64,000 nt of DNA from an uncultured Bacteroidales bacterium (GTDB taxonomy: Bacteria > Bacteroidota > Bacteroidia > Bacteroidales > FEN-979). Shown here piece by piece: positions 701-63,546 of this stretch; the stretch's first letter is position 1; every line of letters begins with the position of its first letter. The DNA lies in the NCBI GenBank assembly GCA_963785325.1, contig CAWAVC010000012.1:35455-99454 (forward strand), written 5' to 3'. The notes below the pieces were generated by a model. That model made no database searches and was not told the origin of the DNA. It worked only from the letters and a program-made list of their open reading frames with translations. The translations under genes and the position numbers were made by a program.

Positions 701-796
701 AATGAAGAATGAAGAATGAAAAATTGAATAATTAATTGTCAATTATCAATTAACAAGCACCAAATGCCCAATACCTAACGCTCAATACTCAATACC
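701..796. repeat. Degenerate heptamer tandem array: AATGAAG/AATGAAA x3, AATT(G/A)(T/A)C x3, then CAATACC-like x6
   Basis: Period-7 units read directly at 701-721, 734-754 and 755-796. Confidence 0.85.
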
Positions 797-830
797 AAAA
801 TCTGCGTTTTACTTTTTAAAATCATTTTTG

Positions 831-838
831 TATCTTTG
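831..838 (+). promoter_or_regulatory. Bacteroidota sigma-A -7 element (TATCTTTG) upstream of mscL
   Basis: Matches TAnnTTTG, 23 nt before the ATG. Confidence 0.6.
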
Positions 839-861
839 TTTACTGATCAATATATATAAAC

Positions 862-1281
862 ATGAAAATTTTAGACGAATTCAAAGAATTTGCTGTCAGA
901 GGCAATGTAATCGATCTTGCTGTAGGTATCATCATCGGGGCAGCATTCGGGAAAATAGTTTCTTCCCTGGTCAATGATGTTATTATGCCACCCATAGGGC
1001 TGTTACTGGGCGGGATGAATTTCACCGACATCCATATTACTATGAAAAATGCAATCACAGATCCAGCCACGGGGAAGATTCTCAAGGCCGCTGTCGATCT
1101 TAAAATAGGAAGTTTTATCCAAACCCTGGTTGACTTCACCATTATCGCCTTTTCAGTATTTATGCTTGTCAAGGTTGTGACCAGGATGAACAGGAAGAAG
1201 GAAGAAGCTCCTATTGAACCTCCGGCACCGACTAAGGACCAGGAATTGCTGACAGAGATCAGGGACCTGCTTAAAAAATAG
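862..1281 (+). CDS. mscL: Large-conductance mechanosensitive channel
   Basis: [34 protein letters not shown] and [10 protein letters not shown] signatures. Confidence 0.97.
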
Positions 1282-1402
1282 CGAAATGGCGAGATAGCGA
1301 AGTAGCGAAGTAGCGAAGTAGCGAAGTAGCGAAAAAAATTGTGACGCGTGACGCTTAACGCGTGACAAAATATTAATTACCAATTATCAACTGTCAATTA
1401 TA
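1279..1402. repeat. Octamer array GCGAAGTA (4 exact + 3 degenerate), then GTGACGC-like x3-4, then AATTATC-like heptamers x4
   Basis: Units at 1281-1336, 1341-1366 and 1375-1402; the mscL TAG stop runs into the first unit. Confidence 0.9.
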
Positions 1403-1410
1403 ACAACCCT

Positions 1411-2352
1411 ATGAAAAAATTTACTTTTATTCTTCTCCTGATATCTATGTCGAACTTTGTGATGAGCCAGGATAAGGAAATTGTCAAAACCGCCAAGGCA
1501 AAGGACGCTGTGGCAGCAATTAAAGTGGACACGGTCAAAGCCTGGTACCTGGATGGAATTGCCTCACTAAACTTTTCACAGGCATCATTCTCAAATTGGT
1601 CTTCCGGAGGACAGAATTCTTTAGGATTAAACTCGTTTATTAGCCTTAAAGCCAATTATAAGAAAGGGAAACATTCCTGGGGAAACACTTTGGACTTAGG
1701 TTATGGGTTTATCATCCAGGGAAAAATGAAAGATGCAAAATACACTAAATCAAACGACCAACTGGAATTTACAAGTGCTTATGGCTATTCCATTTCAAAG
1801 GACAACAAATGGCTGCTTACTGTCCTTGTAAATTTCCGTACGCAATTCAGCGACGGTTATAATTATCCGGATGACAGTACCATTACTTCAAAATTCATGG
1901 CTCCGGGTTACCTGGTGACAGGTATTGGTTTTACTTATACACCTGCAAAATGGTTTTATTTATACTTGTCGCCTTCTTCAGGGAGATTTACTTTCGTCCT
2001 TGATAAAAAACTTTCTGATTCAGGTGCATTTGGGGTTCCCAGGGGTAAAAAGATATTTGCAGAGTTTGGCCCCTATTTTCGGGCTGATATGAATAAAGAC
2101 CTTTCGAAAACGATCAACCTCGCAACCACGGTTGAACTTTTTACAAATTATTTCAGGGATTTCGGGAATATTGATGTAAACTGGGGCCTGTTTCTCACCA
2201 TGAAGGTCAACAAATGGCTGGCAGCTTCTTTAGCGACACAGCTCATTTATGATAACAATATAAAGACCAGGACTGCTCCCACCGATGAAGCCATACCGCA
2301 TACTCAGTTCAAGGAATTGTTCGGACTAGGACTGACGTATAAGCTCAGATAG
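1411..2352 (+). CDS. DUF3078-like outer-membrane beta-barrel protein
   Basis: Signal peptide; FSQASFSNWSSGG, NFRTQFSDGY, FMAPGYL and C-terminal QFKELFGLGLTY motifs. Confidence 0.8.
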   Translation: MKKFTFILLLISMSNFVMSQDKEIVKTAKAKDAVAAIKVDTVKAWYLDGIASLNFSQASFSNWSSGGQNSLGLNSFISLKANYKKGKHSWGNTLDLGYGFIIQGKMKDAKYTKSNDQLEFTSAYGYSISKDNKWLLTVLVNFRTQFSDGYNYPDDSTITSKFMAPGYLVTGIGFTYTPAKWFYLYLSPSSGRFTFVLDKKLSDSGAFGVPRGKKIFAEFGPYFRADMNKDLSKTINLATTVELFTNYFRDFGNIDVNWGLFLTMKVNKWLAASLATQLIYDNNIKTRTAPTDEAIPHTQFKELFGLGLTYKLR

Positions 2353-2379
2353 AGGTAAAGAAAATCATCCGTTTATTTC

Positions 2380-2745
2380 TTATTTTTTCTTTATCCGGAA
2401 ATTCACAACGATAGAAATTACCAAGGCTATCAGATAGAGAATAAGCGTAAGATCATTAGTGATTTTTGCACCCGGTAAATAACCTGTGAACCTGTTTACA
2501 AGGTAACTGATATAGGAATCCGGCAAGTTGTACTGTCCAAGCTTATGTAGAACCTGCCAGTGAAATTCCGTAAGTGGACAAAATCCGATCCCATAAAAAA
2601 TGCCCAGGATAAACCAGGATCCACCTGTCAGAAGGAGAGTAATCAGGTTGGCCCTGCGTAAAGGCTTGATAATCCATCCGAAAAGATTAAAAAAAATCAA
2701 AAGGGTATGAAACACAATAAAAAAAATGTCAAGAAACCGGAGCAT
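2380..2745 (-). CDS. DUF2784-like membrane protein
   Basis: FHT..IFFNLFGW and GFCPLTEFHW motifs; hydrophobic segments. Confidence 0.75.
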   Translation of the reverse strand: MLRFLDIFFIVFHTLLIFFNLFGWIIKPLRRANLITLLLTGGSWFILGIFYGIGFCPLTEFHWQVLHKLGQYNLPDSYISYLVNRFTGYLPGAKITNDLTLILYLIALVISIVVNFRIKKK

Positions 2746-2854
2746 GTATATAATCCCTTGGTAATTATCGCTTCCTAAAAATACGAATAAATTATTAATT
2801 TTGTCTATCGATGCCTGAACACATCCTCATTAAAATCATTATAAACTGAAACCT

Positions 2855-3130
2855 ATGTCAAACTTGGAAGTCAATGAAGAAAATCTCTCTCATGAGGAGA
2901 TCCAGTACCGTTACTATATACAGAGAGGTCTTGATTTTACTAAAATTGAATTGTTCAGGTCTGCAAGGGAACATTACAAACAAGCTTTGACCTACAAACC
3001 CGGCGATCCATTTGCGCTGGAAAGAATTGATGCCTGTAACCGGCAGATCAGGAAGGACAAGGTCAAAGTTCTCATTATTATTCCTATAGTGCTTGGATTG
3101 ATCGCTACCGTTATTGCATTGAACGTATAG
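2855..3130 (+). CDS. Small TPR-like protein with C-terminal membrane anchor
   Basis: Single TPR-like helix pair (AREHYKQALTYKPGD) plus terminal hydrophobic helix; TAATTTTG -7 element at 2796-2803. Confidence 0.6.
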   Translation: MSNLEVNEENLSHEEIQYRYYIQRGLDFTKIELFRSAREHYKQALTYKPGDPFALERIDACNRQIRKDKVKVLIIIPIVLGLIATVIALNV

Positions 3131-3137
3131 TACACTG

Positions 3138-3903: not shown

Positions 3904-4066
3904 AGTAACAGAGTAACAGAGTAACAGAATTGAAAGGATTCTGATAAAAATACAGCATCCAGCATCTTGGTTTTAATTCATTATTAATTATCAATTTTCA
4001 ATTGACCAATACCCAATACTTAGTACTCAGTACCAATACCCATTTTCCAGTACCCAATTCCCATTT
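3904..4066. repeat. AGTAACAG x3, CAGCATC x2, then ~11 degenerate heptamers (AATTATC grading to CAATACC/AGTACCC)
   Basis: Units read directly at 3904-3927 and 3986-4062. Confidence 0.85.
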
Positions 4067-4109
4067 TTACCGTCAAAACTTTTTTCCTTGCTCTTTCCGT
4101 CTGAATTTT

Positions 4110-4155: not shown

Positions 4156-5496
4156 ATGAAAAATAAACCTCCACTTTCTTTCTGGCAGATCTGGAACATG
4201 AGTTTCGGATTCCTTGGAATTCAGTTTGGCTGGGGATTGCAAATGGCGAATATGAGTGCTATATACTCTTACCTTGGAGCTGACCCCGGTCATATAGCCT
4301 TACTTTGGCTTGCTGCACCGATCACGGGAGTTCTCATCCAGCCATTGGTCGGGCAGGCCAGCGATAGGACATGGACTCGTTTAGGCCGCCGCAGGCCGTT
4401 TATCCTGGGTGGAGCTATTCTTGCTTCTATTGCCTTGATTCTCATGCCTAATTCACCATCTCTATGGGTTGCTGCCGGTTTGCTTTGGGTTCTCGATGGG
4501 ACCATAAATGCCAGCATGCAGCCATTCAGGGCACTTGTGGCCGATAACCTGCCGGAAGAACAAGATTCTCAGGGTTTTGCTATTCAGTCTCTTTTTATCG
4601 GACTTGGAGGAACGGTGGCCTCTGCCCTTCCGTGGATGATGATTAACTGGTTTGGTCTTACCGCTGAAGGAGCAGGTAAAGGACATATTCCTTCATCTGT
4701 CACTATTTCTTTTTATATTGGAGCTGCTGCATTCATTGGTGCCGTTTTATGGACGGTATTCACTACAAAAGAAATTCCTCCCGAAGAATCTGAAATTGCT
4801 GCCATCAGGGCAAGAAAATTCGACTGGACACTGGGATTAAAGGATATTTTCAATCTTTTTGGCCATCTGCCCCGTCGAATGTGGGAACTGGGCCTGGTAC
4901 AGTTTTTTACATGGATCGGCATGTTCTGTTTGTGGGTGTATTTTTCTCCGGCTATTGCAATTAACATCTTCCATGCTCAGGCAGGCTCTGTCGAAATGGA
5001 AGCGTCCGGATCATGGGCCGGATTTTGTTTCGCCATGTATAATGCCGTTTGTTTTGCATTCTCCTTTGTACTTCTCCGGGCAACCAAATGGATCGGGCCC
5101 AAACTAATGCACACACTCTGCCTTGCCGTTGGAGCTATAGGCTTGTTAACCATCCCTCTAATGAATGATAAATATGGCCTTCTTATCTCCATGACCTGCA
5201 TTGGAATCGCCTGGTCAAGTATTCTTTCCATGCCTTATGCCATGCTTACTCCTGCCCTTCCAAAAGATAGAGTAGGAGTACTGATGGGAATGTTCAACCT
5301 GTTTATCGTTTTCCCGCAAATCATTGCTTCAGGTTTCCTGGGAAAGATCGTTGAAATATTCTTTGCCAACAATCCAATGAACGCAATGCTTATCGGTGGA
5401 GTCAGTTTCGCTATTGCTTCTGTAACAACCATTTTCGTTGTTACCTATAAAAAAAATACGAACGATGATGCTGTAAATGTTAAAGCAGGACACTAG
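4156..5496 (+). CDS. MFS maltose/maltodextrin transporter (SLC45/GPH-like)
   Basis: FWQIWNMSFGFLGIQFGWGLQ, SDRTWTRLGRRRPF and MQPFRALVAD motifs; ~12 TM segments; alpha-glucan locus context. Confidence 0.88.
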   Translation: MKNKPPLSFWQIWNMSFGFLGIQFGWGLQMANMSAIYSYLGADPGHIALLWLAAPITGVLIQPLVGQASDRTWTRLGRRRPFILGGAILASIALILMPNSPSLWVAAGLLWVLDGTINASMQPFRALVADNLPEEQDSQGFAIQSLFIGLGGTVASALPWMMINWFGLTAEGAGKGHIPSSVTISFYIGAAAFIGAVLWTVFTTKEIPPEESEIAAIRARKFDWTLGLKDIFNLFGHLPRRMWELGLVQFFTWIGMFCLWVYFSPAIAINIFHAQAGSVEMEASGSWAGFCFAMYNAVCFAFSFVLLRATKWIGPKLMHTLCLAVGAIGLLTIPLMNDKYGLLISMTCIGIAWSSILSMPYAMLTPALPKDRVGVLMGMFNLFIVFPQIIASGFLGKIVEIFFANNPMNAMLIGGVSFAIASVTTIFVVTYKKNTNDDAVNVKAGH

Positions 5497-5498: not shown

Positions 5499-5560
5499 AA
5501 TGAAAAATGAAGAATGAAGAATTAAAAATTAAAATTAAAAATGAAAAATGAACAATTGAG
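5499..5560. repeat. AATGAAG/AATTAAA heptamer array (~9 units)
   Basis: Starts 2 nt after the MFS stop codon. Confidence 0.85.
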
Positions 5561-5609: not shown

Positions 5610-7689
5610 ATGATTATTTTATTTTCTGTTTTGACCATTATGGTTGGATGCAACCGGTTAAAACCTCCGGTTGCTATGCAGATTCCGTCAGAACAGGTTG
5701 TTCTGGAAATCCATTTAACAGACCCTTATAAATGGATGGAAAATCCAAAGAATCCTAAGACAATTGCATATATAAATGCCGAAAACGAATTTGCCATTCA
5801 TTATTTCGATCGGGTTACAGAATTGAAAGATAAACTCCTGAAGGAATTTGAAGAAAAAGATGCATTCGCGAATAAATGGGGAACAAATCCGGTACTGACA
5901 GGGGATTATTTTTATTATAGCAGGGTCTCGCCTGGAAAGGATTACCCGGTGCATTACCGGAAATCGAATACGGATAACGCAAAGGAAGAGTCACTTCTGG
6001 ATGAGAACCTGCTTGCAAAAGGATTTCAGGATTACCGGATGAATCAATTCCTCGCCTCATCTGATAATTCATTTTATTTCTATTGTTATGCGATAAATGG
6101 TATTGACCGGTTGATTATTCAGTCGATTAATGGCAAGACACCAAATGACAGCATCATTGCTCACGTGACACATGCTATTTGGGCACAGGATGGCAAATCA
6201 GTTGTATACGTAAAGAATGACAAAGAAGTTTTTATTCATAAACTAAATACGCTTGCCAGTCATGATCTATTAATTTATGATGAGAAACGAAATGATCTTG
6301 ATGTTGATATTACTCTGTCAGGATCAGGGAAGTATATATTCATTAATTCCAATAATAGTGAATCGAATGAATGCTCATATATCCCTGCAGACATTAAAAT
6401 CACGAAACCGACGCTGATCGAACCGCTGAAAGAAGGCAGAAAGTATTTCCCCAATCATTTTGGTTCAGACTTCTTCCTCATCCTTTCCGATCATGATTCC
6501 GGAAATCGAAAACTTTACAAGGCAATGATTAGCAATGCCTCAGAAAAAGGTTGGAGAACTGTACTTGAAGGAAACGATAGCATCTATATCAATGACTTTA
6601 CCGTCATTGACCAGAAATATCTTCTCTTGTTTGAAACTAAACAATTGAATGCAAGGATGAGACTGATTGATCTTTCTAATAGCGGTAAAGATAACCAGAT
6701 CACCTTTAGAGAGCCCGACGGACACATGGTGTTCAATTATTTTAACAGGAAGGAGTGCAAGATCGTATTCTCATTTGCAAGTATCCTGACGCCATTTACC
6801 ACATACAGATACGATATTAACAACCGGCAGTTGATTATTGAAAGGCCGCCTCTTGTTAAGGATTATCAGAAAGAAAACTACATCACAGAACTGGTTTGGG
6901 CCAAATCCGGAGATGGAACTCTTATCCCAATTTCAATGATCCATAAAAACGGCATGAAAGAGAAGCGATGGCAAGAACCCTCTTTACCTTGAGGCTTTTG
7001 GAAGTTACGGACACACAGTCAGTGATGATTTTACATCTGATAGAGTCAGCTTGTTGAATCGTGGATTTTACATTGCTGTGGCTCATGTCCGGGGTGGCGG
7101 GGAGTTTGGAAGAAAATGGTGGGAGGCAGGTAAACTGTTAAATAAAAAGAATGCCATCAACGATTACGTGGCCTGTGCAGAATTTCTGATCAAACAAGGA
7201 TATACTGCAAAAGGGATGATTGCTGCTGCAGGATGCTATGAGGGAGGAATGGTCATTGGCGCTGCAGTGAACGAGCGTCCTGATCTTTTTAAATGTGTAT
7301 TGTTACTGACGCCAGATATGGACATGGTCGCTGAACTTCTTGACTCATCCTCTAATAATGCAAATTATGATAAAAGAATGGAATTCGGTAATCCGGGCAA
7401 TCGGCAACAATTTGATTATCTTTACAGTTACTCCCCCTATGACAATATAAAAAAGCAGGAATACCCTGCCATACTATTAAGATCATCACCTGAGGGTCAG
7501 CATGTTAAGTACTCTGGCACATTGAAGATGGTGGCAAGGTTGAGGGCAACTGCCTCAGGTAATAATATTTTTCTCATCAGGACAGATACCAGAAATATAA
7601 ATATAGGAGATTACAAAAAGAAGGAATTTAACGGGTTTTGGGCAGAAAATTGGGCGTTTATCCTGAAACAATACGGCATCGAGGAATGA
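5610..7689 (+). CDS. Oligopeptidase B / prolyl oligopeptidase (S9A)-like lipoprotein, frameshifted at ~6958, catalytic residues apparently absent
   Basis: DPYKWME, SGDGTLIPIS, AHVRGGGEFGRKW and YSYSPYDNI motifs; lipobox MVGC; removing one A at 6957-6959 joins ORFs 5541..6992 and 7051..7689; start at 5610 inferred because the 5541 ATG lies in a repeat. Confidence 0.85.
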
Positions 7690-7795
7690 AGAAAGAAAAA
7701 TGAAGAATGAAGAACGAAGAAATGCAGGAATGCAGGCGTATAAATGCAGGATCGAAAATGGGCACTTAAACTTAACACTTAAAACTTAGTACTTA
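7685..7795. repeat. AATGAAG-like x5, AATGCAG-containing units x3, then (C)ACTTAA-like x5
   Basis: Units read directly; the TGA stop of the S9 gene lies inside the first unit. Confidence 0.85.
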
Positions 7796-11187: not shown

Positions 11188-11213
11188 AATAATTGAATCG
11201 TAATTCGTAATTT
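11188..11213. repeat. Short array TCGTAATTCGTAATT (reverse complement of the AATTACG family)
   Basis: 11198-11212, just before the MFS start. Confidence 0.6.
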
Positions 11214-18102: not shown

Positions 18103-19488
18103 ATGAACAAAACAGACTTCATTCAGCAATTACCGAAAATCCTTGCTTTCATCTTGCTGATAGCTGCAGGGATTGTAATTTGGTCATGTGCCGGTTTCAG
18201 CGGGGAAACTTCAAAACGCGAACTTATTCACCCGGAGTGGGCAAAGAATGCGGTACTATACGAAGTTAACGTCAGACAATATACGCCAGAAGGCACATTC
18301 AAAGCCTTTGAAAAGCATCTTTCACGCCTGAAAGCGATGGGCATAGATATTCTCTGGTTGATGCCGGTCAACCCAATCGGGATAAAAAACCGGAAAGGAA
18401 CACTTGGAAGCTACTATTCAGTAAAAGATTACCTGGCAGTGAACCCTGAATACGGTACAAAAGATGATCTGAAGGAATTGGTTAACAAAGCGCATGAGCT
18501 TGGCATGCACGTGATTATCGATTGGGTTGCCAATCATACATCCTGGGATAACAACCTGATCACGGAACACCCTGACTGGTATAAACATGATTCAACCGGT
18601 AAGATTATTCCACCGGTTCCCGACTGGACCGATGTGGCCGGTCTGAATTATACGAAAAAAGAATTGCGCGAATACATGACCAGTGCATTAATTTACTGGG
18701 TAAGGGAAGCCGACATTGACGGTTTTCGGTGCGATGTTGCAGGGATGTTGCCAGTCAGCTTCTGGAATGAAGCAGTTCCAAAGATCAAAGCGGTAAAGCA
18801 TGTTTTCATGCTGGCAGAATGGGAAACTCCTGAAATGCATGATACAGCTTTTGACATGACCTATTCATGGAATGCATATCAGGTAATGAATGCTATTGCT
18901 AAAGGCAAGAGAACTGCACATGCAATTGATTCAGTATTAAAATCGGATTCTGCCAAATATCCAGCCGATGCTATCCGTATGCGGTTCACTACAAATCATG
19001 ATGAGAACTCCTGGAACGGAACAGAATATACACGGTTGGGCGACGCTGCAAAGACATTCGCCGTGTTATGTTTCACTTTGCCTGGTATGCCATTGATCTA
19101 TAGTGGACAAGAATCGGCCTTTAACAGAAGTCTTAAATTTTTTGATAAAGACATTATTGATTGGGACAATTATTCCATGGCAGACTTTTATTCTCAGTTA
19201 GGTAAACTAAAAAAAGAGAACATGGCTTTATCTGCAGGATCTGCCGGAGGAAAAATGATTAAAGTTGCCTCTGATAATGATAATAATGTTTATTCCTTTT
19301 TACGAAAGAAAGATAATAATACTGTTTTTGTCATTCTTAACCTCTCATCTGTCGAACAAAAAGCGACCCTGAAAGGGAACAGCTATGAGGGAGATTATAA
19401 AAGTCTTTTCGAAAATAAAGATATTCATCTTGATGGTTCCCTCTCAGTAACCCTGAAACCATGGGAGTATAGAGTATATTACAGATAA
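18103..19488 (+). CDS. GH13 alpha-amylase (lipoprotein-like)
   Basis: LYEVNVRQYTPEG, DWVANH, DGFRCDVA, AEW, TNHDEN. Confidence 0.9.
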   Translation: MNKTDFIQQLPKILAFILLIAAGIVIWSCAGFSGETSKRELIHPEWAKNAVLYEVNVRQYTPEGTFKAFEKHLSRLKAMGIDILWLMPVNPIGIKNRKGTLGSYYSVKDYLAVNPEYGTKDDLKELVNKAHELGMHVIIDWVANHTSWDNNLITEHPDWYKHDSTGKIIPPVPDWTDVAGLNYTKKELREYMTSALIYWVREADIDGFRCDVAGMLPVSFWNEAVPKIKAVKHVFMLAEWETPEMHDTAFDMTYSWNAYQVMNAIAKGKRTAHAIDSVLKSDSAKYPADAIRMRFTTNHDENSWNGTEYTRLGDAAKTFAVLCFTLPGMPLIYSGQESAFNRSLKFFDKDIIDWDNYSMADFYSQLGKLKKENMALSAGSAGGKMIKVASDNDNNVYSFLRKKDNNTVFVILNLSSVEQKATLKGNSYEGDYKSLFENKDIHLDGSLSVTLKPWEYRVYYR

Positions 19489-19561
19489 TTACGAATTACG
19501 AATTACGAAAGCAACCGCTACCTATCTGCTCCCAACACCTAATACCAAATACCCAATACCA
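19487..19561. repeat. AATTACG x3 followed by C-rich heptamers (CCAACAC/CTAATAC/CAAATAC/CCAATAC)
   Basis: Units read directly; first unit overlaps the GH13 TAA stop. Confidence 0.85.
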
Positions 19562-19600
19562 AAAAAGAAGCTACCTCAACCTAATGAGGTAGCCTCTTTT
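19561..19600. terminator. Bidirectional intrinsic terminator between convergent GH13 and susE
   Basis: GCTACCTCA / TGAGGTAGC stem with A-run on the left and T-run on the right. Confidence 0.8.
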
Positions 19601-19620
19601 CAGGATTAAAATCATTAAGA

Positions 19621-45861: not shown

Positions 45862-45937
45862 AATAATCGGTTTTATTTCTTTTTAGCAAATTTAGAATTA
45901 TAATGATTAGCACATAATCGGTGTTGAAATTTTTCGG

Positions 45938-45972
45938 AATTTCGTAATTCGTAATTTTTCATTTTTCATTCT
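45938..45972. repeat. TTCGTAA x2 and TTTTCAT x2 (reverse complements of the AATTACG and AATGAAA families)
   Basis: Read directly, immediately before the cutC start. Confidence 0.75.
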
Positions 45973-45973
45973 T

Positions 45974-46329
45974 ATGCTACTTGAGGCTTGTGTTAATTCT
46001 GCTGTTTCTGCGATCGAAACTCAAAAAGGCGGCGCCGACCGCATAGAACTTTGCGAAAACATGCTTGAGGGCGGATGCACACCCAGTGCAGGAGCGATAA
46101 TGTTTGCCAGGCAACATCTTCACATCGGCTTGTTCGTGATGATCTGTCAGCGAGGCTCTGATTTCTGCTATAGAAAGGAAGAGTTTGAAATCATGAAACA
46201 GGATGTAAAGCTAGCAAAATGGGCAAACCCGACCTCCCAGAATATGAAACAATCATTGTAAATAAAAAAAGAATTTTAAAGGCCAGAAAAATAATTACGA
46301 ATTACGAATTACAGATTACGACAACCTGA
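45974..46329 (+). pseudogene. cutC: CutC copper-homeostasis-family remnant with a large internal deletion
   Basis: LEACV, GGADRIELC, GGCTPS present; MIRPRGGDF degraded to MICQRGSDF; after ~80 codons the sequence jumps to a C-terminal-like MGKPDLPEYE segment in another frame (46219). Confidence 0.75.
46293..46322. repeat. AATTACG-family heptamers x4
   Basis: AATTACG AATTACG AATTACA GATTACG. Confidence 0.8.
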
Positions 46330-46348
46330 ATTTAAACAATTTATACAA

Positions 46349-49550
<3,202 letters not shown>

Positions 49551-52159: not shown

Positions 52160-52178
52160 AATTTTCAATTATCAATTA
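52160..52178. repeat. AATTTTC AATTATC AATTA heptamers running into the frr stop
   Basis: Read directly. Confidence 0.6.
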
Positions 52179-52778: not shown

Positions 52779-52832
52779 TTTGTATGTCTCTATGACTCTG
52801 GATCTTTGTATGTTTCAATTATCAATAATTCA
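52779..52832. repeat. Degenerate octamer (TTTGTATG/TCTCTATG) and AATTATC-type units between frr and pyrH
   Basis: Read directly; weaker than the other arrays. Confidence 0.5.
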
Positions 52833-53534: not shown

Positions 53535-53601
53535 ACCAATAAAAATTTATTTTATAAATAATGGTATTGGGTTAATTAGGCAACTTTTAATCTTTAATTC
53601 T

Positions 53602-56600
53602 TTACTGTCCGGCGCCGTGGCAATTCTTATATTTCTTACCGCTTCCACAAGGACATGGATCGTTGCGTCCCACCTTTTTCTCAACACGCACCGGCTGTGG
53701 CTTCTGTTTTTCCTGTGTGTTCGAATTAGCTTGTGAGAGCATGTCTGAGCGTTCTTCTCTTAAGCGGCTGCGATCCATTTTTCTCGGCCGTTGTGCTTCG
53801 TGTACATTTTCTACCTGTATTGGAACGTCAGCTTTGATCAGAAAAGAAATGATTTCCTTATTTGTCCGCTGAACCATTGACTTGAAAAGTTCAAACGATT
53901 CAAACTTGTAAATAAGCAAAGGATCTTTTTGTTCATATGCTGCATTTTGAACCGATTGTTTGAGGTCATCCATCTCCCTCAGGTGTTCCTTCCATGCATT
54001 ATCGATCATACTCAGCACAATGCCCTTTTCTATTGATAATGCCACTTCTTTCCCCTTATCTTCAATAGCTTTGCGGATGTTTGTGATAACCTGCATGGTT
54101 TTCATTCCATCGGTTACAGGGATGGCAATGTTCTCATATTGCGTTTCATTCTCAAAAACCTGCTTTATGACAGGGTATGTCTTCTTTGCGATTGCATCGT
54201 TCTTTGCTTTGTAACGCCTGTAAACATGTTCATATAGCTTGTCTGCCAGTTCCGAAATATCTTTCGATTGGAAATCATCTTTCCCGAATGGAGAATCAGT
54301 AACAAATTCCCGAAGGAGTTCCAGTTTGAAACCTTCAAAATCATTTGCTTCCTTGTAATCGATAACAGTCGTCTCACAAACATCGTAAATCATATTACTG
54401 ATATCAACAGCGAGACGCTCACCGAAAAGAGCATGGTGGCGCTTTTTATAGATGGCATCCCGCTGAATATTCATGACATCATCATATTCAAGAAGTCTTT
54501 TGCGGATGCCAAAGTTATTTTCCTCTACTTTCCTTTGTGCCCGTTCGATCGATTTCGTAATCATGGAATGTTGGATGACTTCTCCTTCCTTGATTCCCAT
54601 CCGGTCCATAATTTTTGCAATCCTGTCGGATCCGAACATACGCATCAGGTCATCTTCCAGACAAACGAAGAACTGGGAACTGCCGGGGTCTCCCTGGCGT
54701 CCTGCGCGGCCGCGTAACTGCCTGTCGACACGGCGCGACTCATGCCTTTCTGTGCCGATGATGGCAAGCCCACCGGCCTCCACGACTCCTTTGCCCAACT
54801 TAATATCGGTACCACGTCCGGCCATGTTTGTGGCGATGGTCACGGTACCTGCAATACCTGCCTGGAGTACAATTTCGGCTTCCTTCTGATGTAGCTTTGC
54901 ATTCAACACATTGTGCTTAATGTTCTGACGTTTAAGCATACGGCTCAACAATTCTGACGTCTCAACTGAAGTCGTACCTACCAGGCTTGGCCTTCCAATA
55001 GAAATCAGGTGTTCAATCTCTTTGATGACAGCATTAAATTTTTCCCGTTTTGTTTTATATACCAGATCCTGACGGTCATCGCGAATTACCGATCTATTAG
55101 TAGGAATGACAACGACGTCCAACTTGTAAATATCCCAAAATTCACCTGCTTCTGTTTCGGCGGTACCGGTCATCCCAGCTAGTTTTTTGTACATCCTGAA
55201 ATAATTCTGCAGTGTAATGGTAGCATAAGTCTGTGTAGCAGCCTCTATCTTCACATTCTCCTTTGCTTCAAGGGCCTGATGAAGTCCTTCCGAGTACCTT
55301 CTTCCTTCAAGAATACGTCCAGTCTGTTCATCGACTATCTTGATCTTGTTGTCCATGATGACATATTCCACATCTTTTTCAAACAAAGCATAGGCCTTTA
55401 ACAACTGGTTTACGGTGTGAACCCGCTCTGATTTGATCGAATAATCAATCATCATTTGGTTCTTTTTTTCCAGTTTTTCAGATTCAAGAAGGTCAGAGTG
55501 TTCAAGTTCGGCTAATTCGTTACCAATATCCGGCAGAATATAGAATGTGGGATCATCATAAGATTCGGTCAACAGGTCGATCCCTTTATCTGTCAACTCA
55601 ATTGTATTGTTTTTTTCATCGATTACGAAATAAAGTTCATCATCGATGATATGCATGTTCTTGGATTGTTCCTGCATGTAAAAATTCTCTGTTTTCAGGA
55701 GGAGTGCCTTCATGCCAGGTTCACTAAGAAATTTGATCAGCGCTTTGGTCTTTGGAAGTCCATGATAAGAACGGAGTAATTGTTCACCCGCTTTTTTTAT
55801 ATTCTCGTTGTTGTTCTCATCCTCGCTTAGTGATTTTGCTTCGGCAAGCAACCTGGTGACCAGATTCCTTTGTGCGTTGTATAACTTTACCACATTGGGT
55901 TTCAATTCCTCAAAAGCCTGGTTTTCTCCTTCTGGTGTAGGTCCAGAAATAATAAGCGGGGTTCTGGCGTCATCAATCAAAACAGAGTCAACTTCATCGA
56001 CAATCGCGTAGTTGTGCACCCGTTGTACCATTTCCTCGGGATTGCTGGTCATATTATCACGCAGGTAATCAAAGCCAAATTCATTGTTTGTTCCAAAAGT
56101 GATATCTGCGTTATAAGCATTTCTGCGGGCATCTGAATTTGGCTCGTGTCTGTCGATACAATCTACTTTCAATCCATGAAACTCATAAAGGACCCCCATC
56201 CATTCCGAATCTCGTTTTGCGAGGTAATCATTTACGGTAACGATATGAACACCTTTTCCCGGAAGGGCATTCAGGTATACTGGAAGTGTAGCAACAAGTG
56301 TTTTTCCTTCACCGGTAGCCATTTCTGCGATCTTCCCCTCGTGAAGTACCACTCCGCCTATTAGCTGAACATCATAGTGAATCATATCCCAGCGGATCAT
56401 ATTTCCGCCTGCAATCCAGTTTGTTTTGTACCTGGCCTTATCTCCTTCGATCACAACATTGGCTTTCACGGCAGCAAAATCACGATCCATCTGAGTAGCG
56501 GTAACTTCAATATATTCATTCTCAACAAATCTCCTTGCCGTATCTTTCATCACAGCAAAGGCTTCGGGCAGGATTTGATTTAATATTTCCTGGGTCAGTT

Positions 56601-56886: not shown

Positions 56887-56965
56887 AATAATATAATTGA
56901 TAAATCAACAAATGCTGAACAAAAGTAAGCAAAATCCAGTGACCAATCTTTTCAGCCTTTGAATT

Positions 56966-58357: not shown

Positions 58358-58380
58358 TCAATTGAATTTAGTGATGCCAG

Positions 58381-58450
58381 ATAATTGAAAGTTGAAAATT
58401 GATGTTGATAAAAATCATACTGACTTTATGACTTCATAACTTCATAAACT
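58381..58450. repeat. TTGAAA/TTGAT heptamers then (G/A)ACTT(T/C)AT octamers
   Basis: Read directly; the coaD stop lies in the last octamer. Confidence 0.7.
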
Positions 58451-58924
58451 TACTGAATCATGAATTTCCTTTGCAATTTTATCTGGGACAAACTTGCTGA
58501 CATCGCCTCCATTCTTCAGAATATCCCTGACCACAGATGAATTGAGAGCTGCATATTCCGGTGCACTCAGAAAAAATACTGTTTCGATTTCAGGTGAAAT
58601 GGCTTTGTTCATAAGGCCGATAGTCCGTTCAAATTCAAAATCGGCAGAGGTTCTCAATCCACGCAAGATATATCCTGCTTTTATTTTCCTGCAAAAATCG
58701 ACAGTAAGACCTGAATATTTTACGATTCTGACCTTCGGTTCATCGGAGAACACCTGTATAAGCCATTTTAACCGATTATCCAGGGAGAAATATGACTTTT
58801 TTTCAACATTTTCTCCTAATGCAACAATGATTTTATCGAATACCGGAATTGCCCTGCGGACGATGGATACATGACCCAGTGTAATAGGATCAAAGGATCC
58901 CGGGAAAACAGCGATCTTTTTCAT
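58442..58924 (-). CDS. coaD: Pantetheine-phosphate adenylyltransferase
   Basis: FPGSFDPITLGH, LRGLR, SSVVR; -7 element TAAGTTTG at 58945-58952 on the minus strand. Confidence 0.96.
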   Translation of the reverse strand: MKKIAVFPGSFDPITLGHVSIVRRAIPVFDKIIVALGENVEKKSYFSLDNRLKWLIQVFSDEPKVRIVKYSGLTVDFCRKIKAGYILRGLRTSADFEFERTIGLMNKAISPEIETVFFLSAPEYAALNSSVVRDILKNGGDVSKFVPDKIAKEIHDSVSL

Positions 58925-58965
58925 CAACAATACATTTTCTCGGGCAAACTTACTGAAATATTCTC

Positions 58966-59070
58966 GATTGGACGATTTACAAATGACGAATGAATTTTTT
59001 TATTGACGATTTATGATTTCATTGCGTAAATAAACAATAAATCCTAAATCTAAAATTGTCTAATCTCAAA
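58966..59070. repeat. GACGATTT-type units on the left, TAAATC(C)-type units on the right
   Basis: Read directly; degenerate. Confidence 0.65.
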
Positions 59071-60632: not shown

Positions 60633-60653
60633 TGGTTCCTGTCATGAATAAAG

Positions 60654-60687
60654 AAAAAAGGGATTATCCGAAAACCGACAATCCCTT
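60654..60687 (-). terminator. Intrinsic terminator after tsf
   Basis: Minus strand AAGGGATTGTC-loop-GATAATCCCTT followed by a T-run. Confidence 0.8.
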
Positions 60688-60707
60688 AAAAATCAATTAA
60701 TCCTAAA

Positions 60708-61546: not shown

Positions 61547-61601
61547 AAAAAATTTGTGTGTTTAATATTGATTAATTTAAATAGTATAATATCCCAGTAG
61601 G

Positions 61602-62543
61602 TCATTTTTTATTCGATTTTCCGGCAGGTTTGTTGATTCGTTTACGGGGAACTTTCGTTTTTTCCTTCTCCTCATCCGAATTGGACTTCAGTTTGGCAAT
61701 TTTGGTTTCCACAAAATCTTTCTTCGCAATTTTTATTCCTTCTTCTTCTTCATCTATATCCATGACATCAACACCGGAGTGTATTCCGAATTCATCTTCT
61801 GCTCCTTCAATTTTGCTTTCATGTTCTTCATCGGCAATTTTTTTGTCCCGGTCGAGTTTACGTTCAACAAGACCTTCCTCGATGGCACTCACCATAGCTC
61901 CGATAATAAGGGATATTGATTTGGAAGCGTCGTCATTAGCAGGTATAGCAAAATCCACCTGACGTGGGTCAGAATTTGTGTCGACGATGGCGAAGGTAGG
62001 TATGTTTAATTTTTTTGCTTCGGCAATAGCAATATGTTCTTTCAGAATATCCACTACAAACACAGCTGCAGGAAGACGGTTCAGATCGGCAATACTTCCA
62101 AGGTTCTTTTCCAGTTTTGCCCTTTCGCGAGTAATGGTCAATCGTTCTTTTTTAGAGAGATTGCTATAAGAAGGGCTACTCATCAATTTATCAATGGAAG
62201 CCATTTTCCTTACTGCCTTACGGATGGTAGCAAAGTTAGTAAGCATTCCACCAGGCCAACGCTCCGTTACATAAGGCATATTGACTCTCTTTACTTGTTC
62301 TGCAACGATTTCTTTTGCCTGTTTCTTTGTTGCGACGAACAAAATGCGTTTCCCTGATTTCGAGATCTGCTTGAGTGCAGAAGCTGCTTCGTCCATCTTA
62401 GCCATGGTTTTGTAAAGATCAATAATATGGATCCCATTACGTTCCATGAAAATATAAGGGGCCATGCTCGGGTTCCATTTTCTCTTCAGGTGACCAAAAT
62501 GAACACCGGCATCCAACAATTCATCAAAAGTGATTCTTGACAT
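61602..62543 (-). CDS. rpsB: 30S ribosomal protein S2 (with charged C-terminal extension)
   Basis: AGVHFGH, WPGGMLTN, IPANDDA. Confidence 0.98.
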   Translation of the reverse strand: MSRITFDELLDAGVHFGHLKRKWNPSMAPYIFMERNGIHIIDLYKTMAKMDEAASALKQISKSGKRILFVATKKQAKEIVAEQVKRVNMPYVTERWPGGMLTNFATIRKAVRKMASIDKLMSSPSYSNLSKKERLTITRERAKLEKNLGSIADLNRLPAAVFVVDILKEHIAIAEAKKLNIPTFAIVDTNSDPRQVDFAIPANDDASKSISLIIGAMVSAIEEGLVERKLDRDKKIADEEHESKIEGAEDEFGIHSGVDVMDIDEEEEGIKIAKKDFVETKIAKLKSNSDEEKEKTKVPRKRINKPAGKSNKK

Positions 62544-62561
62544 AATTTCTTTACTATAATT

Positions 62562-62949
62562 TTAACGTTTGCTAAATTGGAATCTTTTCCTTGCTTTTTT
62601 TTGACCGGGCTTTTTCCGTTCGACCATACGCGGATCCCGTCTCATCAATCCTTTTGCTTTTAGTGTGGGCCGGTTTTCTTCGTTGATCTTGCAGAGAGCA
62701 CGGGAAATTGCAAGACTTGAGGGCCTCTGCCTGTCCGGTAATTCCACCGCCATCGAGGTTGACCCTGACATCGTATTTTCCAAAAGTGTTTGTGATGTTG
62801 AAGGGTTCAACAACTTGGTATTGTAAGATTAACGTTGGAAAATATTCTTTATAATCGCGGTCGTTGACCGTAATTTTTCCATCACCTTCTTTTAAATAAA
62901 TCCTCGCGACGGCAGTTTTTCTTCTGCCGAGAGTCATGATAACTTCCAT
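62562..62949 (-). CDS. rpsI: 30S ribosomal protein S9 (apparent +1 error at ~62715)
   Basis: [19 protein letters not shown], then [25 protein letters not shown] in the next frame. Confidence 0.96.
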
Positions 62950-62950
62950 A

Positions 62951-63405
62951 TTATCCGATTGAATTTAGATTGATTACTTTGGGTTGCTGAGCCTGGTGAG
63001 GATGTTCCGGACCTTCATAAACATAAAGGTTACGAAACAATTCACTTCCTAAACGATTTTTAGGCAGCATGCCTTTGATGGCTTTTTCAACAATGGCAGT
63101 GGGCTTTTTTGCCATTAGTTCCTTTGGTGATGTAAAGCGCTGTCCTCCGGGATACCCCGTATGATGGACATATTCTTTATCCGACATCTTTTTACCTGTA
63201 AGAATAACCTTTTCGGCGTTGATGATGATCACATTGTCGCCACAGTCAACGTGCGGTGTATAATTGGTTTTCAGTTTGCCCGGAGTAATCGTGCTGCCTT
63301 GGACAATAAACGTCCAAGAACCTGGTTTTCTGCGTCAATAAGAACCCATTCCTTATTTACCGTTGCTGCGTTGGCACTTATTGTTTTGTAACTTAACGTA
63401 TTCAT
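62951..63405 (-). CDS. rplM: 50S ribosomal protein L13 (apparent -1 error at ~63280)
   Basis: MNTLSYKT..WVLIDA..LGRL, then YTPHVDCGD, HTGYPGG, GMLPKNRLG. Confidence 0.96.
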
Positions 63406-63457
63406 GAACTTTTACTAGTTGTTAAATCATTAATACTATTCCCATTAAAAAGGGGTG

Positions 63458-63465
63458 CAAAAATA
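63458..63465 (-). promoter_or_regulatory. Sigma-A -7 element (TATTTTTG) of the rplM-rpsI-rpsB-tsf operon
   Basis: TAnnTTTG on the minus strand ~52 nt upstream of the rplM ATG. Confidence 0.65.
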
Positions 63466-63507
63466 GAACTAAATTTTTGATTAAACAAATAATCTCAGGA
63501 ACTTTTA

Positions 63508-63546
63508 GGCAAGTAGTAAAATGGCTAAATAGTAAAATGGCAAAAA
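63508..63546. repeat. Degenerate octamer array G(T/C)(A/T)AAAT(G/A) x5
   Basis: GCAAGTA GTAAAATG GCTAAATA GTAAAATG GCAAAAAT. Confidence 0.65.

Follow-up and report, generated by a model that had tools for sequence, protein, structure and literature searches.

Intergenic heptamer and octamer arrays with a gene-end-bound strand polarity in an uncultured Bacteroidales lineage

Introduction

Many spacers of the window (the whole 64-kb stretch analysed here) carry short tandem arrays with units of 7 or 8 nt, G-rich towards the left gene and C-rich towards the right, which raises the question of what makes such arrays and what gives them an orientation. The initial annotation proposed an undescribed repeat-generating system of fixed polarity, in which 3' ends on both sides of a spacer were extended and joined head to head, or alternatively the empty sites of a mobile cassette. 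We examined the window together with the 2.5-Mb draft genome that holds it (G000), with its relatives G005, G008, G009, G010 and G011, and with further genomes where named.

Results

Abundance and placement of the arrays

Arrays were detected as Tandem Repeats Finder (TRF) rows with a score of at least 30, and the chance level was taken from five dinucleotide shuffles of the 1375 spacers (356 kb). The arrays far exceed chance, with 336 period-7 rows against a shuffled mean of 18.0 (19-fold) and 192 period-8 rows against 26.0 (7-fold); periods 6 and 9-12 lay at about chance level in the same comparison. Genome-wide there were 448 rows of period 7, 289 of period 8 and 65 of period 6, and the period-7/8 rows were intergenic in 556 cases (15% of the DNA) versus coding in 181 (85% of the DNA), giving about 550 arrays spread over 315 spacers and built from motifs that number dozens in this lineage. 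Similar proportions were found in 400 kb of a second genus, G013 (85, 57 and 16 rows of periods 7, 8 and 6), and 7-8 nt arrays stand at matching places in independent assemblies of sister species. The arrays are genuine, occur throughout the genus and family, and have their anchors at gene ends. Those of the window are as follows.

701-724: AATGAAG, 3.4 copies, G-C +5; first base 7 nt past the stop (692-694) of a recQ-like ORF
734-756: AATTATC, 3.3 copies; AT-rich spacer centre
760-796: CAATACC-type units, G-C -5, with a TRF row at 781-795 (CTCAATA, 2.1 copies); upstream of the conserved promoter-like stretch of mscL
1276-1334: AAATAGCG/TAGCGAAG, 7.4 copies, G-C +13; mscL stop TAG (1279-1281) inside the first unit
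1341-1366: GTGACGC, 3.7 copies; TRF row
1375-1402: CAATTAT-like units, no TRF row; directly upstream of an ORF starting at 1411; counterparts in G010 and G011 are clear CAATTAT arrays
3904-3928: AGTAACAG, 3.1 copies, G-C +3
3980-4003: ATTATCA, 3.4 copies; spacer centre
4006-4067: CCAATAC/CAGTACC, 8.4 copies, G-C -18
5499-5557: AATGAAA, 8.4 copies, purine-rich; begins 3 nt past the stop at 5496 and reaches into the next ORF at its called start (5541)
7684-7736: GAATGAA, 5.4 copies, then AATGCAGG, 2.0 copies; spans the stop TGA 7687-7689
7763-7788: CACTTAA, 3.9 copies, G-C -6; ends 9 nt short of the start at 7798
11198-11212: TCGTAAT, 2.1 copies; minimal, score 30
19487-19509: AATTACG, 3.3 copies; overlaps the stop of ORF 18103-19488
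19537-19563: ACCAAAT/ACCCAAT, 3.9 copies, G-C -9; followed by a hairpin and T run at about 19564-19600
45932-45970: TTTCGTAA, 3.4 copies, and ATTTTTC, 2.4 copies, pyrimidine-rich; 3 nt separate its end from the start of a cutC fragment
46293-46321: AATTACG, 4.1 copies; same array in G011 and G010 with point differences
46365-46404: CTATTTTG/GCTACTTC, 5.0 copies, reverse complement of the mscL unit; orthologues, read by eye, have GCCATTTT units in about 4 copies (G011) and about 9 copies (G010)
52160-52178: AATTATC, 2.7 copies; minimal
53586-53604: TTTAATTC, 2.5 copies; minimal, abuts the secA stop, - strand
58383-58402: AATTGAA, 2.9 copies, G-C +4
58423-58447: ACTTCATA, 3.1 copies (TGAAGTTA on the - strand); spans the stop of the - strand cytidylyltransferase ORF 58442-58930; TAGAGTCA-type units at this anchor in G011
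58966-59070: GACGATTT/AATCGTC-like units, apparently decayed, no TRF row
63514-63545: TAGTAAAATGGCAAAA, 2.0 copies (AAAATGGC, 3.5 copies), G-C +3

Thirteen of the 15 intervals originally picked out by inspection are overlapped by at least one TRF row; 52779-52832 and 58966-59070 are not. Three of the 13, at 11198-11212, 52160-52178 and 53586-53604, are minimal: they have 2.1-2.7 copies and score 30-31, which shuffled sequence attains as well. The interval 58966-59070 looks like an array in decay, its orthologue in G011 being an unmistakable AATCGTA/AATCGTC array.

Polarity within spacers

Within the window, G-C skew passes from positive to negative or zero in every spacer with at least two arrays. 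The one seeming exception, 45862-46528, contains the cutC fragment, which divides it into two spacers; the cutC deletion itself is not located at an array. Across the genome, left spacer halves held 168 G-rich versus 85 C-rich arrays and right halves 101 versus 127 (Fisher p 1.6e-6, OR 2.5). When the first and last arrays of each multi-array spacer were compared, 28 spacers switched from G-rich to C-rich and 2 the other way (9:0 at |G-C| of at least 5), so that the reverse-complement-symmetric layout described for the window extends to the genome as a whole. It does so as a real tendency and not as the fixed rule first supposed, given that 32 further spacers were G-rich at both ends and 26 C-rich at both. 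The switch prevailed whatever the orientation of the gene pair (6:0, 3:1, 8:1 and 11:0 in the four classes), as had been claimed, and again in G013 (OR 4.2; 14 versus 1). Spacer DNA outside the arrays showed no polarity, and a replichore effect is ruled out because orientation flips within about 100 nt. Only 5 of the 32 switch pairs were more complementary than the 5th percentile of mismatched pairs; the other 27 were no more complementary than mismatched pairs, in keeping with the earlier remark that left and right motifs mostly differ.

Dependence on gene ends

Polarity fell off steeply with distance from genes. On the sense strand, arrays at most 3 nt from a stop were G-rich in 58 cases versus C-rich in 8, those at 4-15 nt stood at 32:17, and those at 16 nt or more at about 1:1, whereas arrays 4-15 nt from a start stood at 5:21. 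Where both array ends lay 30 nt or more from any gene, the left halves counted 85:55 and the right halves 76:56 (OR 1.14, p 0.62). G013 behaved likewise, its arrays standing at 25:2 up to 15 nt from stops and its interior OR being 1.1. Orientation switches among interior arrays (|G-C| of at least 3) are so rare, one from G-rich to C-rich and two in reverse, that the lack of polarity away from genes is judged from the comparison of left and right halves and with crude ORF calls. Nearly all of the polarity signal is contributed by arrays lying no more than about 15 nt from a gene end.

Local composition points in the same direction. Of the 70 arrays no more than 3 nt from a stop, almost half (33) span the stop codon itself, and stop codons contain no C; in array-free genes the last 12 coding nucleotides have a GC skew of +0.06 and a purine fraction of 0.57, and array-free leaders (-20 to -1) have a skew of -0.08 to -0.11. 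Array-free 3' flanks are not G-rich (-0.03 to -0.05). Stop codons do not account for the bias, as gene-end arrays with equally many stopped frames on both strands were still 30 G-rich versus 9 C-rich, and only 36 of 123 gene-end arrays stop all three frames. By a rough estimate, seeding from local sequence would predict only a modest bias, well short of 58:8.

Orthologous spacers

The mscL stop TAG begins an 8-mer array in all nine loci compared across genus and family, with units TAGCGAAG, TGGCGAGC, TGGCAAAA or TAGTGAGA and a copy number that varies between loci; spacer 58358-58441 and the arrays downstream of cutC likewise have a fixed anchor with changing units and copy number. As these aligned copies show, arrays evidently change between species through unit drift and copy number. 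Arrays were present in the recQ|mscL spacer of three of five species, always upstream of the conserved promoter-like stretch, and absent from the other two. The gD|secA spacer, conserved over 81-82 nt in five species, has no array, an example of how spacers with a conserved signal carry none, and the secA|gB spacer (array 53586-53604) measures only 14-16 nt in G005 and G008. Orthologous spacers had been proposed as a place to look for inserted small ORFs or altered copy numbers; copy numbers do change, but no small ORF was found in 5 to 9 copies of each of six window spacers.

In the 116 arrays with at least five copies, units are equally decayed at the two ends of the G-rich strand. The first two units averaged 0.92 and the last two 0.94 mismatches per unit, the mismatch-richer end was the first in 46 arrays, the last in 46 and neither in 24, and by thirds the values were 1.17, 0.84 and 1.05, the middle being most uniform. 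Together with kept anchors whose units drift, this symmetry argues against polar extension of 3' ends.

Motifs also differ by genome. Three units of AAAATGGC with at most 2 mismatches matched 31 windows in G010 and 16 in G011, compared with 1 in G000, 0 in G005 and 1 in G009, and at two unlinked orthologous arrays G000 has GAAGTAGC-type units, and both G011 and G010 have AAAATGGC-type units. Such spread lies beyond what local slippage can explain; we consider ectopic copying between arrays or cassette traffic likelier than a dedicated polymerase.

Stem-loop cassettes around small accessory genes

A link of similar arrays to four-helix-bundle (IVP) and GxxExxY genes had been mentioned in the initial annotation, and it holds in this genome and order, outside the window; a search of the window itself found neither gene. 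Five of the nine IVP genes of G000 and its sole GxxExxY gene lie between inverted single-motif arrays with the G-rich arm on the left, as do one HicAB pair and one HSDR_N_2 gene between inverted arrays of one motif. Elsewhere, among 23 IVP genes of 16 further genomes, 18 are flanked left and right by 7/8-mer arrays and 12 by inverted same-motif arrays, even in genomes with few arrays overall; the background among all 2114 ORFs of G000 is 104 and 10. The IVP cassette C25:246640-247292 is missing from the orthologous spacer in G009, G008 and G005 and is an insertion relative to these three species. Cassettes fold end to end (z -3.4 to -14.9), unlike the window spacers (z -1.9 to +0.8, except for one ordinary terminator hairpin), and three paralogues share arrays and ORF as one unit, with covarying arms (GGTGAGA/TCTCACC versus AGTGAAT/ATTCACT). 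A search for reverse transcriptases returned a single match (RVT_1), a group II intron maturase.

Discussion

Reshaping in place

We put at about even the chance that these arrays are this lineage's form of the known intergenic heptanucleotide-type simple repeats, reshaped in place, with a polarity bound to gene ends and a subset built into cassettes. An existing array would be kept and altered through gain or loss of whole units, by slipped-strand mispairing or unequal exchange, and would spread across signal-free spacer DNA as far as a stop codon on one side and a promoter or start on the other. We count the symmetric mismatch profile and the most uniform middle third as support for slippage-type change. 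Polarity would then be a rule for arrays touching genes rather than the mark of a mode of DNA synthesis: a stop-overlapping array would have an obligatory T-purine-purine in every unit and grow out of purine-rich last codons, and a start-touching array would sit in a G-poor leader. These two effects cover part of the bias only. The subset of inverted single-motif pairs around IVP, PD-(D/E)XK mini-genes and HicAB represents IVS-like stem-loop cassettes with covarying arms. Reshaping in place covers neither the preference for 7 and 8 nt nor the genome-specific spread of motifs.

Alternative explanations

It is possible, though we think it unlikely, that selection keeps the arrays for an RNA or DNA role beside genes, polarity being their functional orientation. 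C-rich, G-poor arrays could be candidate Rho loading sites on transcripts running from spacer into gene and could thereby insulate genes and silence antisense transcripts (our own suggestion); arrays could be periodic sites for a single-strand-binding protein of cold-shock or S1 type, as MacGregor proposed; and complementary arms could be RNase III substrates. Such a role is consistent with persistence at one anchor across genus and family despite sequence change, with covarying cassette arms and with a single motif dominating many loci per genome, the pattern to expect were the motif set by a trans-acting binder, as well as with the published polarity, transcription and reporter results given below. 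Set against this are the absence of arrays from sister spacers without visible replacement (recQ|mscL in two of five species, secA|gB in G005 and G008), the free variation of unit and copy number, the unstructured window spacers, the coexistence of arrays with a normal hairpin terminator at 19564-19600, and an Rfam search of the window with 0 matches.

Decidedly doubtful as a general account is that arrays are the scars left by small IVS-like cassettes, or their landing pads, a reading in which IVP, GxxExxY, HSDR_N_2 and HicAB genes move with inverted-array arms and gene-less G-rich-then-C-rich spacers are lost cassettes with drifted arms or sites primed for capture. The flanked genes, the insertion at C25, the end-to-end folding and the covarying paralogues all speak for this reading, but only about 25 of 717 arrays (estimated from array lists) adjoin such genes, and in a sample of 11 other genomes IVP/GxxExxY counts do not follow array density. 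A stop or start codon is touched or overlapped by most polar arrays, for which a cassette arm has no reason, and the six window spacers lack small ORFs in their orthologues. With most left/right pairs not complementary, the proposed empty sites fit a minority at most.

Very improbable is the initially proposed reiterative extension, by which a spacer break was healed through short-template or slippage synthesis adding G-rich units to both 3' ends, before these were joined head to head, in some cases with a small gene caught in between: it would account for G-rich strands running 5' to 3' from flank to centre with hardly any reverse switches, for arrays beginning exactly at the border of selectively kept sequence, for cassette arms of one inverted motif (two 3' ends copying one template) and for one motif in vogue per genome, yet the G-rich strand has no age gradient, arrays at orthologous sites agree in anchor and phase and diverge through stepwise changes of their units, most pairs carry different motifs on their two sides, no left/right bias remains at least 30 nt from genes, the cutC deletion lies away from any array, the sole RVT_1 match is the maturase, and the Y1 transposase matches are multi-copy IS elements, with none in the array-bearing G015 and G017.

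Comparison with known systems

These arrays have published counterparts, so that the phenomenon is not undescribed. PMC4692102 reports, for the heptamer repeats of Xanthomonas and Nostoc (GGGAATC and GGGGA(T/C)T), the same distance and strand rule with stop-codon overlap, 70-75 convergent inverted pairs, and transcription of most Xanthomonas repeats; taken with the present arrays, the same polarity appears in three phyla with unrelated motifs. Deleting heptamer repeats upstream of Nostoc recO altered reporter activity, according to a preprint (bioRxiv 10.1101/2022.06.06.494920). Heptamer arrays are further known from Beggiatoaceae, Cyanobacteria and some Bacteroidetes (PMC4679880), and to these relatives in cyanobacteria, Xanthomonas, Beggiatoaceae and a few Bacteroidetes the present arrays add an uncultured Bacteroidales family. 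The cassettes, for their part, resemble 23S rRNA intervening sequences (IVS) in their stem-loop build and in arms that bracket a small gene, and a Coxiella IVS has 2-3 GACAGAT heptamers before its S23p ORF (PMC4990558).

Arrays of 7- and 8-nt units crowd the spacers of the genome

Tandem Repeats Finder (TRF) returned 55 rows in the window, most of them of period 7 or 8 and located in the spacers between genes. Thirteen of the 15 array intervals listed in the initial annotation are covered by these rows, three of them minimally (2.1-2.7 copies), whereas 52779-52832 and 58966-59070 have no TRF row. The layout that it had described, with successive array types following one another across a spacer, was seen on reading the sequence, as in these two spacers:

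Spacer 3' of the recQ-like ORF: AATGAAG x3, an AT-rich AATTATC centre, then CAATACC units
Spacer 3' of mscL: TAGCGAAG x7 from the stop codon, GTGACGC, then CAATTAT units up to the next start

We evaluated the pattern across the whole draft genome (G000; 2.49 Mb, 55 contigs, 80% complete; the window is C12:35455-99454), whose nearest named records are uncultured Bacteroidales or 'Prolixibacteraceae' MAGs. Periods 7 and 8 gave 448 and 289 TRF rows, and periods 6 and 9 gave 65 and 171. Genes were called from codon usage with a crude ORF caller, which gave 2114 ORFs and placed 85% of the genome in coding sequence; on these calls the period-7/8 rows were divided into 556 intergenic and 181 coding, and rows of periods 6, 9 and 12 were mostly coding. 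Within 1375 spacers there were 336 rows of period 7 and 192 of period 8, as compared with 18.0 and 26.0 in dinucleotide shuffles, while periods 6 and 9-12 stood at chance level. The arrays are real and well above chance. Their units, 7-8 nt long and mostly strand-asymmetric, fall into 284 motif classes, of which the commonest are AATTACG (33 TRF rows), AAATCGT (32) and ACTGCCG (25), followed by AACTGGTG, ACCCAGT and AAGTGAG with 23 rows each. The longest arrays are TGGTGAAC x106, GTGAGAG x70 and GGGTACT x68, and other loci consist of arrays of arrays; as this is a short-read MAG, copy numbers of very long arrays may be wrong. The features that mark heptanucleotide-type simple repeats were thus all found, namely head-to-tail units of about 7 nt above chance, a preference for non-coding DNA, a limited set of recurring motifs, and a rule of strand and distance relative to genes. 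Known RNA families were rejected as the identity of the window arrays, as no Rfam family reached its gathering score anywhere in the window.

The array hot spot of the genome is G000:C25:236000-268000, a polysaccharide-type locus (NusG/UpxY-like gene, nucleotidyl transferases) that holds GTGAGAG x70, GGGTACT x68 and x50, and four IVP genes. At 261342-262739 of this contig, (AAGCGGAC)3-10 (GTGAGAA)3.6 is repeated eleven times, and an NTP_transferase gene is broken into the ORFs 257761-258030 and 257993-258463. Two whole composite spacers of the window, 700-799 and 1300-1401, each with three successive array types, match unlinked sites by BLAST (72-77%); these lie in the related genomes G001, G004, G010 and G011, with one in G000 itself (C9:7332-7389), which hints that blocks of arrays may be copied as units. 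A fixed motif order was not convincing in G000, where recurrent ordered pairs came mainly from two arrays-of-arrays loci. A G/C-rich palindromic element, CCCCTCCC...GGGGAGGGG, is a dispersed repeat distinct from the arrays; it was seen at contig ends of the sister species G010 (C557 end, C522 start) and adjoins arrays in the sister species G011.

Polarity is carried by arrays that touch genes

Polarity was analysed over 526 arrays in 315 spacers of G000, scored as G-rich or C-rich on the top strand. Left halves of spacers held 168 G-rich and 85 C-rich arrays and right halves 101 and 127 (p 1.6e-6), and purine content behaved in the same way. In spacers with several arrays, the first and last array ran from G-rich to C-rich in 28 cases and in the reverse order in 2, with 32 pairs both G-rich and 26 both C-rich; adjacent arrays switched 32 times in the first sense and 7 times in the second, and at |G-C| of at least 5 the switch counts were 9 and 0. 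The polarity was present in convergent, divergent and both co-directional spacer classes, and it recurred in 400 kb of the complete genome G013, from another genus (polarity OR 4.2; 14 switches from G-rich to C-rich versus 1 in reverse). The initial annotation had called the polarity fixed: it was right in kind, but the word overstates the rule.

The polarity is carried by arrays that touch genes. On the sense strand of the gene, arrays at most 3 nt from a stop were G-rich in 58 cases and C-rich in 8, those 4-15 nt from a stop stood at 32:17, and farther out the ratio was about 1:1. The stop codon itself was covered by 33 of the 70 stop-adjacent arrays. Arrays 4-15 nt from a start showed the opposite preference (5 G-rich, 21 C-rich), with starts taken as the first ATG/GTG/TTG, so that 5'-end distances are less reliable than distances to stops. 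Arrays at ORF 3' ends that the caller had counted as coding were likewise G-rich in sense (29:7), which means that no opposite, stop-free class had been swallowed by ORF ends. Arrays at least 30 nt from both genes had no left/right bias (85:55 vs 76:56), and the bias was likewise gone in G013; as interior arrays hardly ever switch orientation, the absence of interior polarity rests on the half-spacer test.

Among the possible causes, local composition at gene ends works in the right direction, since the last 12 coding nt have a skew of +0.06, stop codons contain no C and leaders have a skew of -0.08 to -0.11, but its effect is weak; array-free 3' flanks are skewed by -0.03 to -0.05. Pairing between the two halves as a hairpin was ruled out for most spacers, with 5 of 32 pairs below the 5th percentile of mismatched pairs (Mann-Whitney p 0.74), and the window spacers do not fold (z -1.9 to +0.8). 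Stop codons within the repeat unit were ruled out, given that the bias remained at 30:9 when both strands had equal numbers of stopped frames. General spacer composition was dismissed as well, non-array DNA having a skew of +0.014 on the left and -0.002 on the right. Because stop codons, composition and half-pairing are insufficient, part of the polarity is unexplained.

One convergent spacer of the window carries an ordinary hairpin followed by a T run (19564-19600) directly after two arrays (fold z -5.8 over 19487-19620), so that arrays and an intrinsic-terminator-like site coexist there.

Arrays differ between sister species

Six window spacers were compared with those of sister species, and 13 congeneric genomes have alignable spacers. 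The TAG stop of mscL opens an 8-mer array in all 9 loci, with units of TAGCGAAG, TAGCGAAA, TGGCGAGC, TGGCAAAA, TAGTGAGA and similar, in varying copy number, and CAATTAT arrays precede the start of the gene downstream of mscL in 5 loci. In the minus-strand spacer 58358-58441 the units at the stop are of TGAAGTTA type in G000 and of TAGAGTCA type in G011, whose orthologous spacer has extra CAATACC and CAATTAT arrays. Downstream (3') of cutC, AATTACG x4 is common to three species, and a second array is GCTACTTC x5 in G000, GCCATTTT x4 in G011 and about 9 copies in G010. Arrays are present between recQ and mscL in 3 of 5 species, and the spacer between secA and its neighbour gB is short (14-16 nt) in two species and longer (70-78 nt) in another two. 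The spacer upstream of secA, between gD and secA (window 56887-56965, 82 nt), is array-free and conserved across five species; it presumably has a genuine regulatory role, in contrast to the hypervariable array-bearing spacers adjoining it. The Bacteroidetes promoter consensus is TAnnTTTG. Among more distant relatives, some have different arrays at the 3' flank of mscL and some have plain hairpin terminators there.

The cutC of the window (45974-46262) is a 95-aa ORF matching Pfam CutC positions 1-85 of 202, and G011 and G010 have about 400 more bases between window 46206 and 46215; the shortening in G000 is either an internal deletion or an assembly error. Arrays as markers of the deletion junction were ruled out, the gap of about 400 nt lying about 80 nt from the nearest array.

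The arrangement of units within arrays bears on how they grow. Across 116 arrays of at least 5 copies, both ends were equally decayed and the middle was most uniform, with mismatches per unit averaging 0.92 over the two leading units and 0.94 over the two trailing ones; 46 arrays scored higher at the first end, 46 at the last and 24 were equal. Equal decay at the ends around a uniform middle fits slippage or unequal exchange rather than addition at a 3' end: the most uniform units, which polar growth would place at the 3' end of the G-rich strand, do not lie there. The initial annotation had proposed that 3' ends on both flanks were extended by reiterative synthesis and then joined head to head. 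That mechanism found no support, given the symmetric decay. The sole RVT_1 match in this 80% complete genome is a group II intron reverse transcriptase/maturase (RVT_1 + GIIM; C38:26920-28167).

Motif usage is also genome-specific. The sequence (AAAATGGC)x3, allowing at most 2 mismatches, was found in 31 windows of G010 and 16 of G011, versus 1, 0 and 1 in G000 and the sister species G005 and G009. Of these genomes, only G000 (4 windows at 2 loci) and G009 (1 window) contained (GAAGTAGC)x3. Two unlinked orthologous arrays are of GAAGTAGC type in G000 and of AAAATGGC type in G011 and G010. Of four AAAATGGC loci of G011 compared with G000, one was without a match and another hit multi-copy genes only. 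The remaining two aligned on a single side; G000 has no array at the corresponding place, but synteny is broken at the other flank. Local slippage is not enough for such genome-specific usage, which calls for a degree of copying between loci or for a preference acting in trans.

A minority of arrays bracket small genes

The initial annotation had named, for Bacteroidota, a link between such arrays and genes for four-helix-bundle (IVP) and GxxExxY proteins. The window has neither gene, and beyond it the link holds: G000 has nine PF05635 matches (IVP, TIGR02436) and one GxxExxY gene (TIGR04256), and five of the IVP genes as well as the GxxExxY gene are bracketed. Each of these five IVP genes has a G-rich array on its left and, on its right, a C-rich array of the same motif in inverted orientation, whichever strand the gene is on.

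Left and right arms of the bracketed genes in G000. The copy number of the fifth IVP entry may be unreliable in a short-read MAG.
IVP: TACTGGG x16, ACCCAGT x10
IVP: GGTGAGA x13, TCTCACC x4
IVP: AGGTGAG, TCTCACT
IVP: AATAGTG, ATTCACC
IVP: TGGTGAAC x106 (847 nt), AGTTCACC x6 (G000:C36:41231-42591)
GxxExxY: CGCTAAGA, TTAGCGTC

A HicAB pair and an HSDR_N_2 gene are also enclosed by inverted arrays. Sixteen other genomes of the order contributed 23 more IVP genes; 7/8-mer arrays flanked 18 of these on both sides, and in 12 the flanks were same-motif inverted arrays, the motif differing from locus to locus. For comparison, 104 of the 2114 ORFs of G000 had arrays on both sides and 10 had inverted ones of a single motif. 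Cassettes fold end to end (z -3.4 to -14.9), and each arm is an entire tandem array, with up to about 100 units. Three paralogous cassettes align over both arrays and ORF (84% mean column identity) with arms that differ in a matched way, and one cassette is absent from the orthologous spacer of G009, G005 and the further sister species G008. They sit between protein-coding genes, for example in the polysaccharide locus, and not in 23S helix 25 or 45. By analogy, the cassettes share the architecture of the 23S rRNA intervening sequence (IVS). As estimated from the array lists, they account for about 25 of 717 arrays. In the literature we found no description of bracketing by inverted arrays outside the Coxiella IVS.

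As for a gene that might generate the arrays, Y1_Tnp genes (IS200/IS605-type) gave 19 matches on many contigs of G000 (e.g. C12:3280-3636 and C16:44475-44837), including sets of 5 and 9 with identical scores, and 0-9 in the sister genomes, a pattern suggestive of recent insertion-sequence activity in G000. None was found in the array-bearing relatives G015 and G017, and Y1_Tnp is present in array-poor families. The numbers of IVP, GxxExxY and Y1 transposase genes in a genome showed no relation to its array density, which argues weakly, from samples of only 10-40 kb per genome, against any of the three as the generator.

A reading of the arrays and its consequences

We read most arrays as STRR-like simple repeats that would turn over in place, through gain and loss of units in unconstrained spacer DNA. 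Beside genes, their orientation may be set partly by what a gene end tolerates or seeds, and a minority would be the arms of IVS-like cassettes around small accessory genes. Why the units measure 7-8 nt, what causes the rest of the polarity and how a motif spreads within one genome are not accounted for by this reading. A single system is a bolder alternative, and one that we consider improbable: IVS-like stem-loop cassettes of Avd-like (IVP) and PD-(D/E)XK genes, with tandem 7-8-mers as arms, would come with a tied trans activity, either a nuclease plus a copying step or a motif-specific binder, that writes the current motif into spacers from both flanks. If true, it would account at once for the unit length, the polarity, the inverted arms of one motif and the genome-specific vogue of motifs, and the same link would lie behind the heptamers of Xanthomonas, Nostoc and the Coxiella IVS.

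This lineage offers a rich and tractable data set, with many motifs, 13 congeneric genomes and motif differences between sister species, and the tight bracketing of IVP, PD-(D/E)XK and HicAB mini-genes joins the puzzle of these repeats to that of the 23S IVS and its S23p ORF. There is a practical side as well: contig ends in G010 fall at arrays, which break short-read assemblies, and arrays shift the apparent positions of stops and starts, so that annotators of Bacteroidota MAGs should expect them.

Comparison with known systems

Bacterial heptamer arrays scattered over the genome have been on record since about 1990, and we know of neither a mechanism of spread nor an agreed function for them. 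Telomerase repeats resemble the present arrays in their short units and in a G-rich strand that runs 5' to 3' toward a former end; here, though, the RVT_1 search found no matching enzyme, there is no polar age gradient, and the two sides of a spacer usually have different motifs. REP/BIME elements are short, extragenic, very numerous and often arranged as inverted pairs of individually palindromic units, and the RAYT gene that mobilises REP is itself flanked by inverted copies. The arrays are likewise short, extragenic, numerous and often in inverted pairs, but REP/BIME with RAYT was ruled out, the units being head-to-tail 7-8-mers rather than palindromic hairpins, the window spacers unfolded and Y1 not co-distributed. 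Closer in kind are the STRR that Mazel and colleagues reportedly described in 1990, dispersed intergenic arrays of 7-nt units in heterocystous cyanobacteria, with few motifs per genome. The arrays match them as dispersed intergenic arrays of 7-nt units, but STRR in the strict sense need a heterocystous cyanobacterial host, and the host here belongs to the Bacteroidales.

For the cassettes alone, the likeness is to the Coxiella IVS, where, according to the portions of PMC4990558 available to us, 2-3 GACAGAT heptamers precede the S23p ORF and an RNase III site lies at the first one. In both, complementary ends pair into a long stem whose loop carries a PF05635 ORF, variable-copy tandem heptamers lie in the 5' arm just upstream of that ORF, and the purine-rich arm comes first. 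The IVS lies in 23S rRNA, whereas the cassettes lie between protein-coding genes and have whole arrays as arms.

TAACTGA heptamer arrays are described for Beggiatoaceae, Cyanobacteria and five Bacteroidetes (MacGregor 2015, PMC4679880). The accessible text reports them as mostly intergenic, often beside start codons, with other heptamers mixed into the same spacers, and as absent from the corresponding site in close relatives; how they spread is given as unknown. That work follows a single motif, which is not among the common ones of G000, and proposes translational control, and the same text reports neither a polarity rule nor 8-mers.

The nearest counterparts are the G-rich intergenic tandem 7-mers GGGAATC of Xanthomonas and GGGGA(T/C)T of Nostoc PCC 7120, with about 90-190 sites per genome (Rehm et al. 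2015, PMC4692102). In the sections of that paper at hand, repeats lie close to an ORF on the 5' side of the G-rich strand, whichever the ORF direction, such that antisense-strand repeats are found upstream of an ORF and sense-strand repeats within 50 bp of a stop or overlapping it; each genome has 70-75 convergent inverted pairs, and long arrays are at different genes in sister species. One quadruplex-capable G-tract motif dominates there, whereas the arrays here, in another phylum, have dozens of motifs, many of them with only 1-2 G per unit, and an equally strong 8-mer class, as well as a link to small bracketed genes that those sections do not mention. The intergenic 7-mers, the strand and distance rule and the convergent inverted pairs are the same in both. 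The initial annotation had taken the system for an undescribed one; with the polarity rule (PMC4692102) and heptamer arrays (PMC4679880) in print, as far as the available parts of both papers go, the arrays are not new in kind. They belong to a known, unexplained kind of repeat, whose polarity is real, tied to gene ends, already described in two other phyla and now seen to hold in a third.
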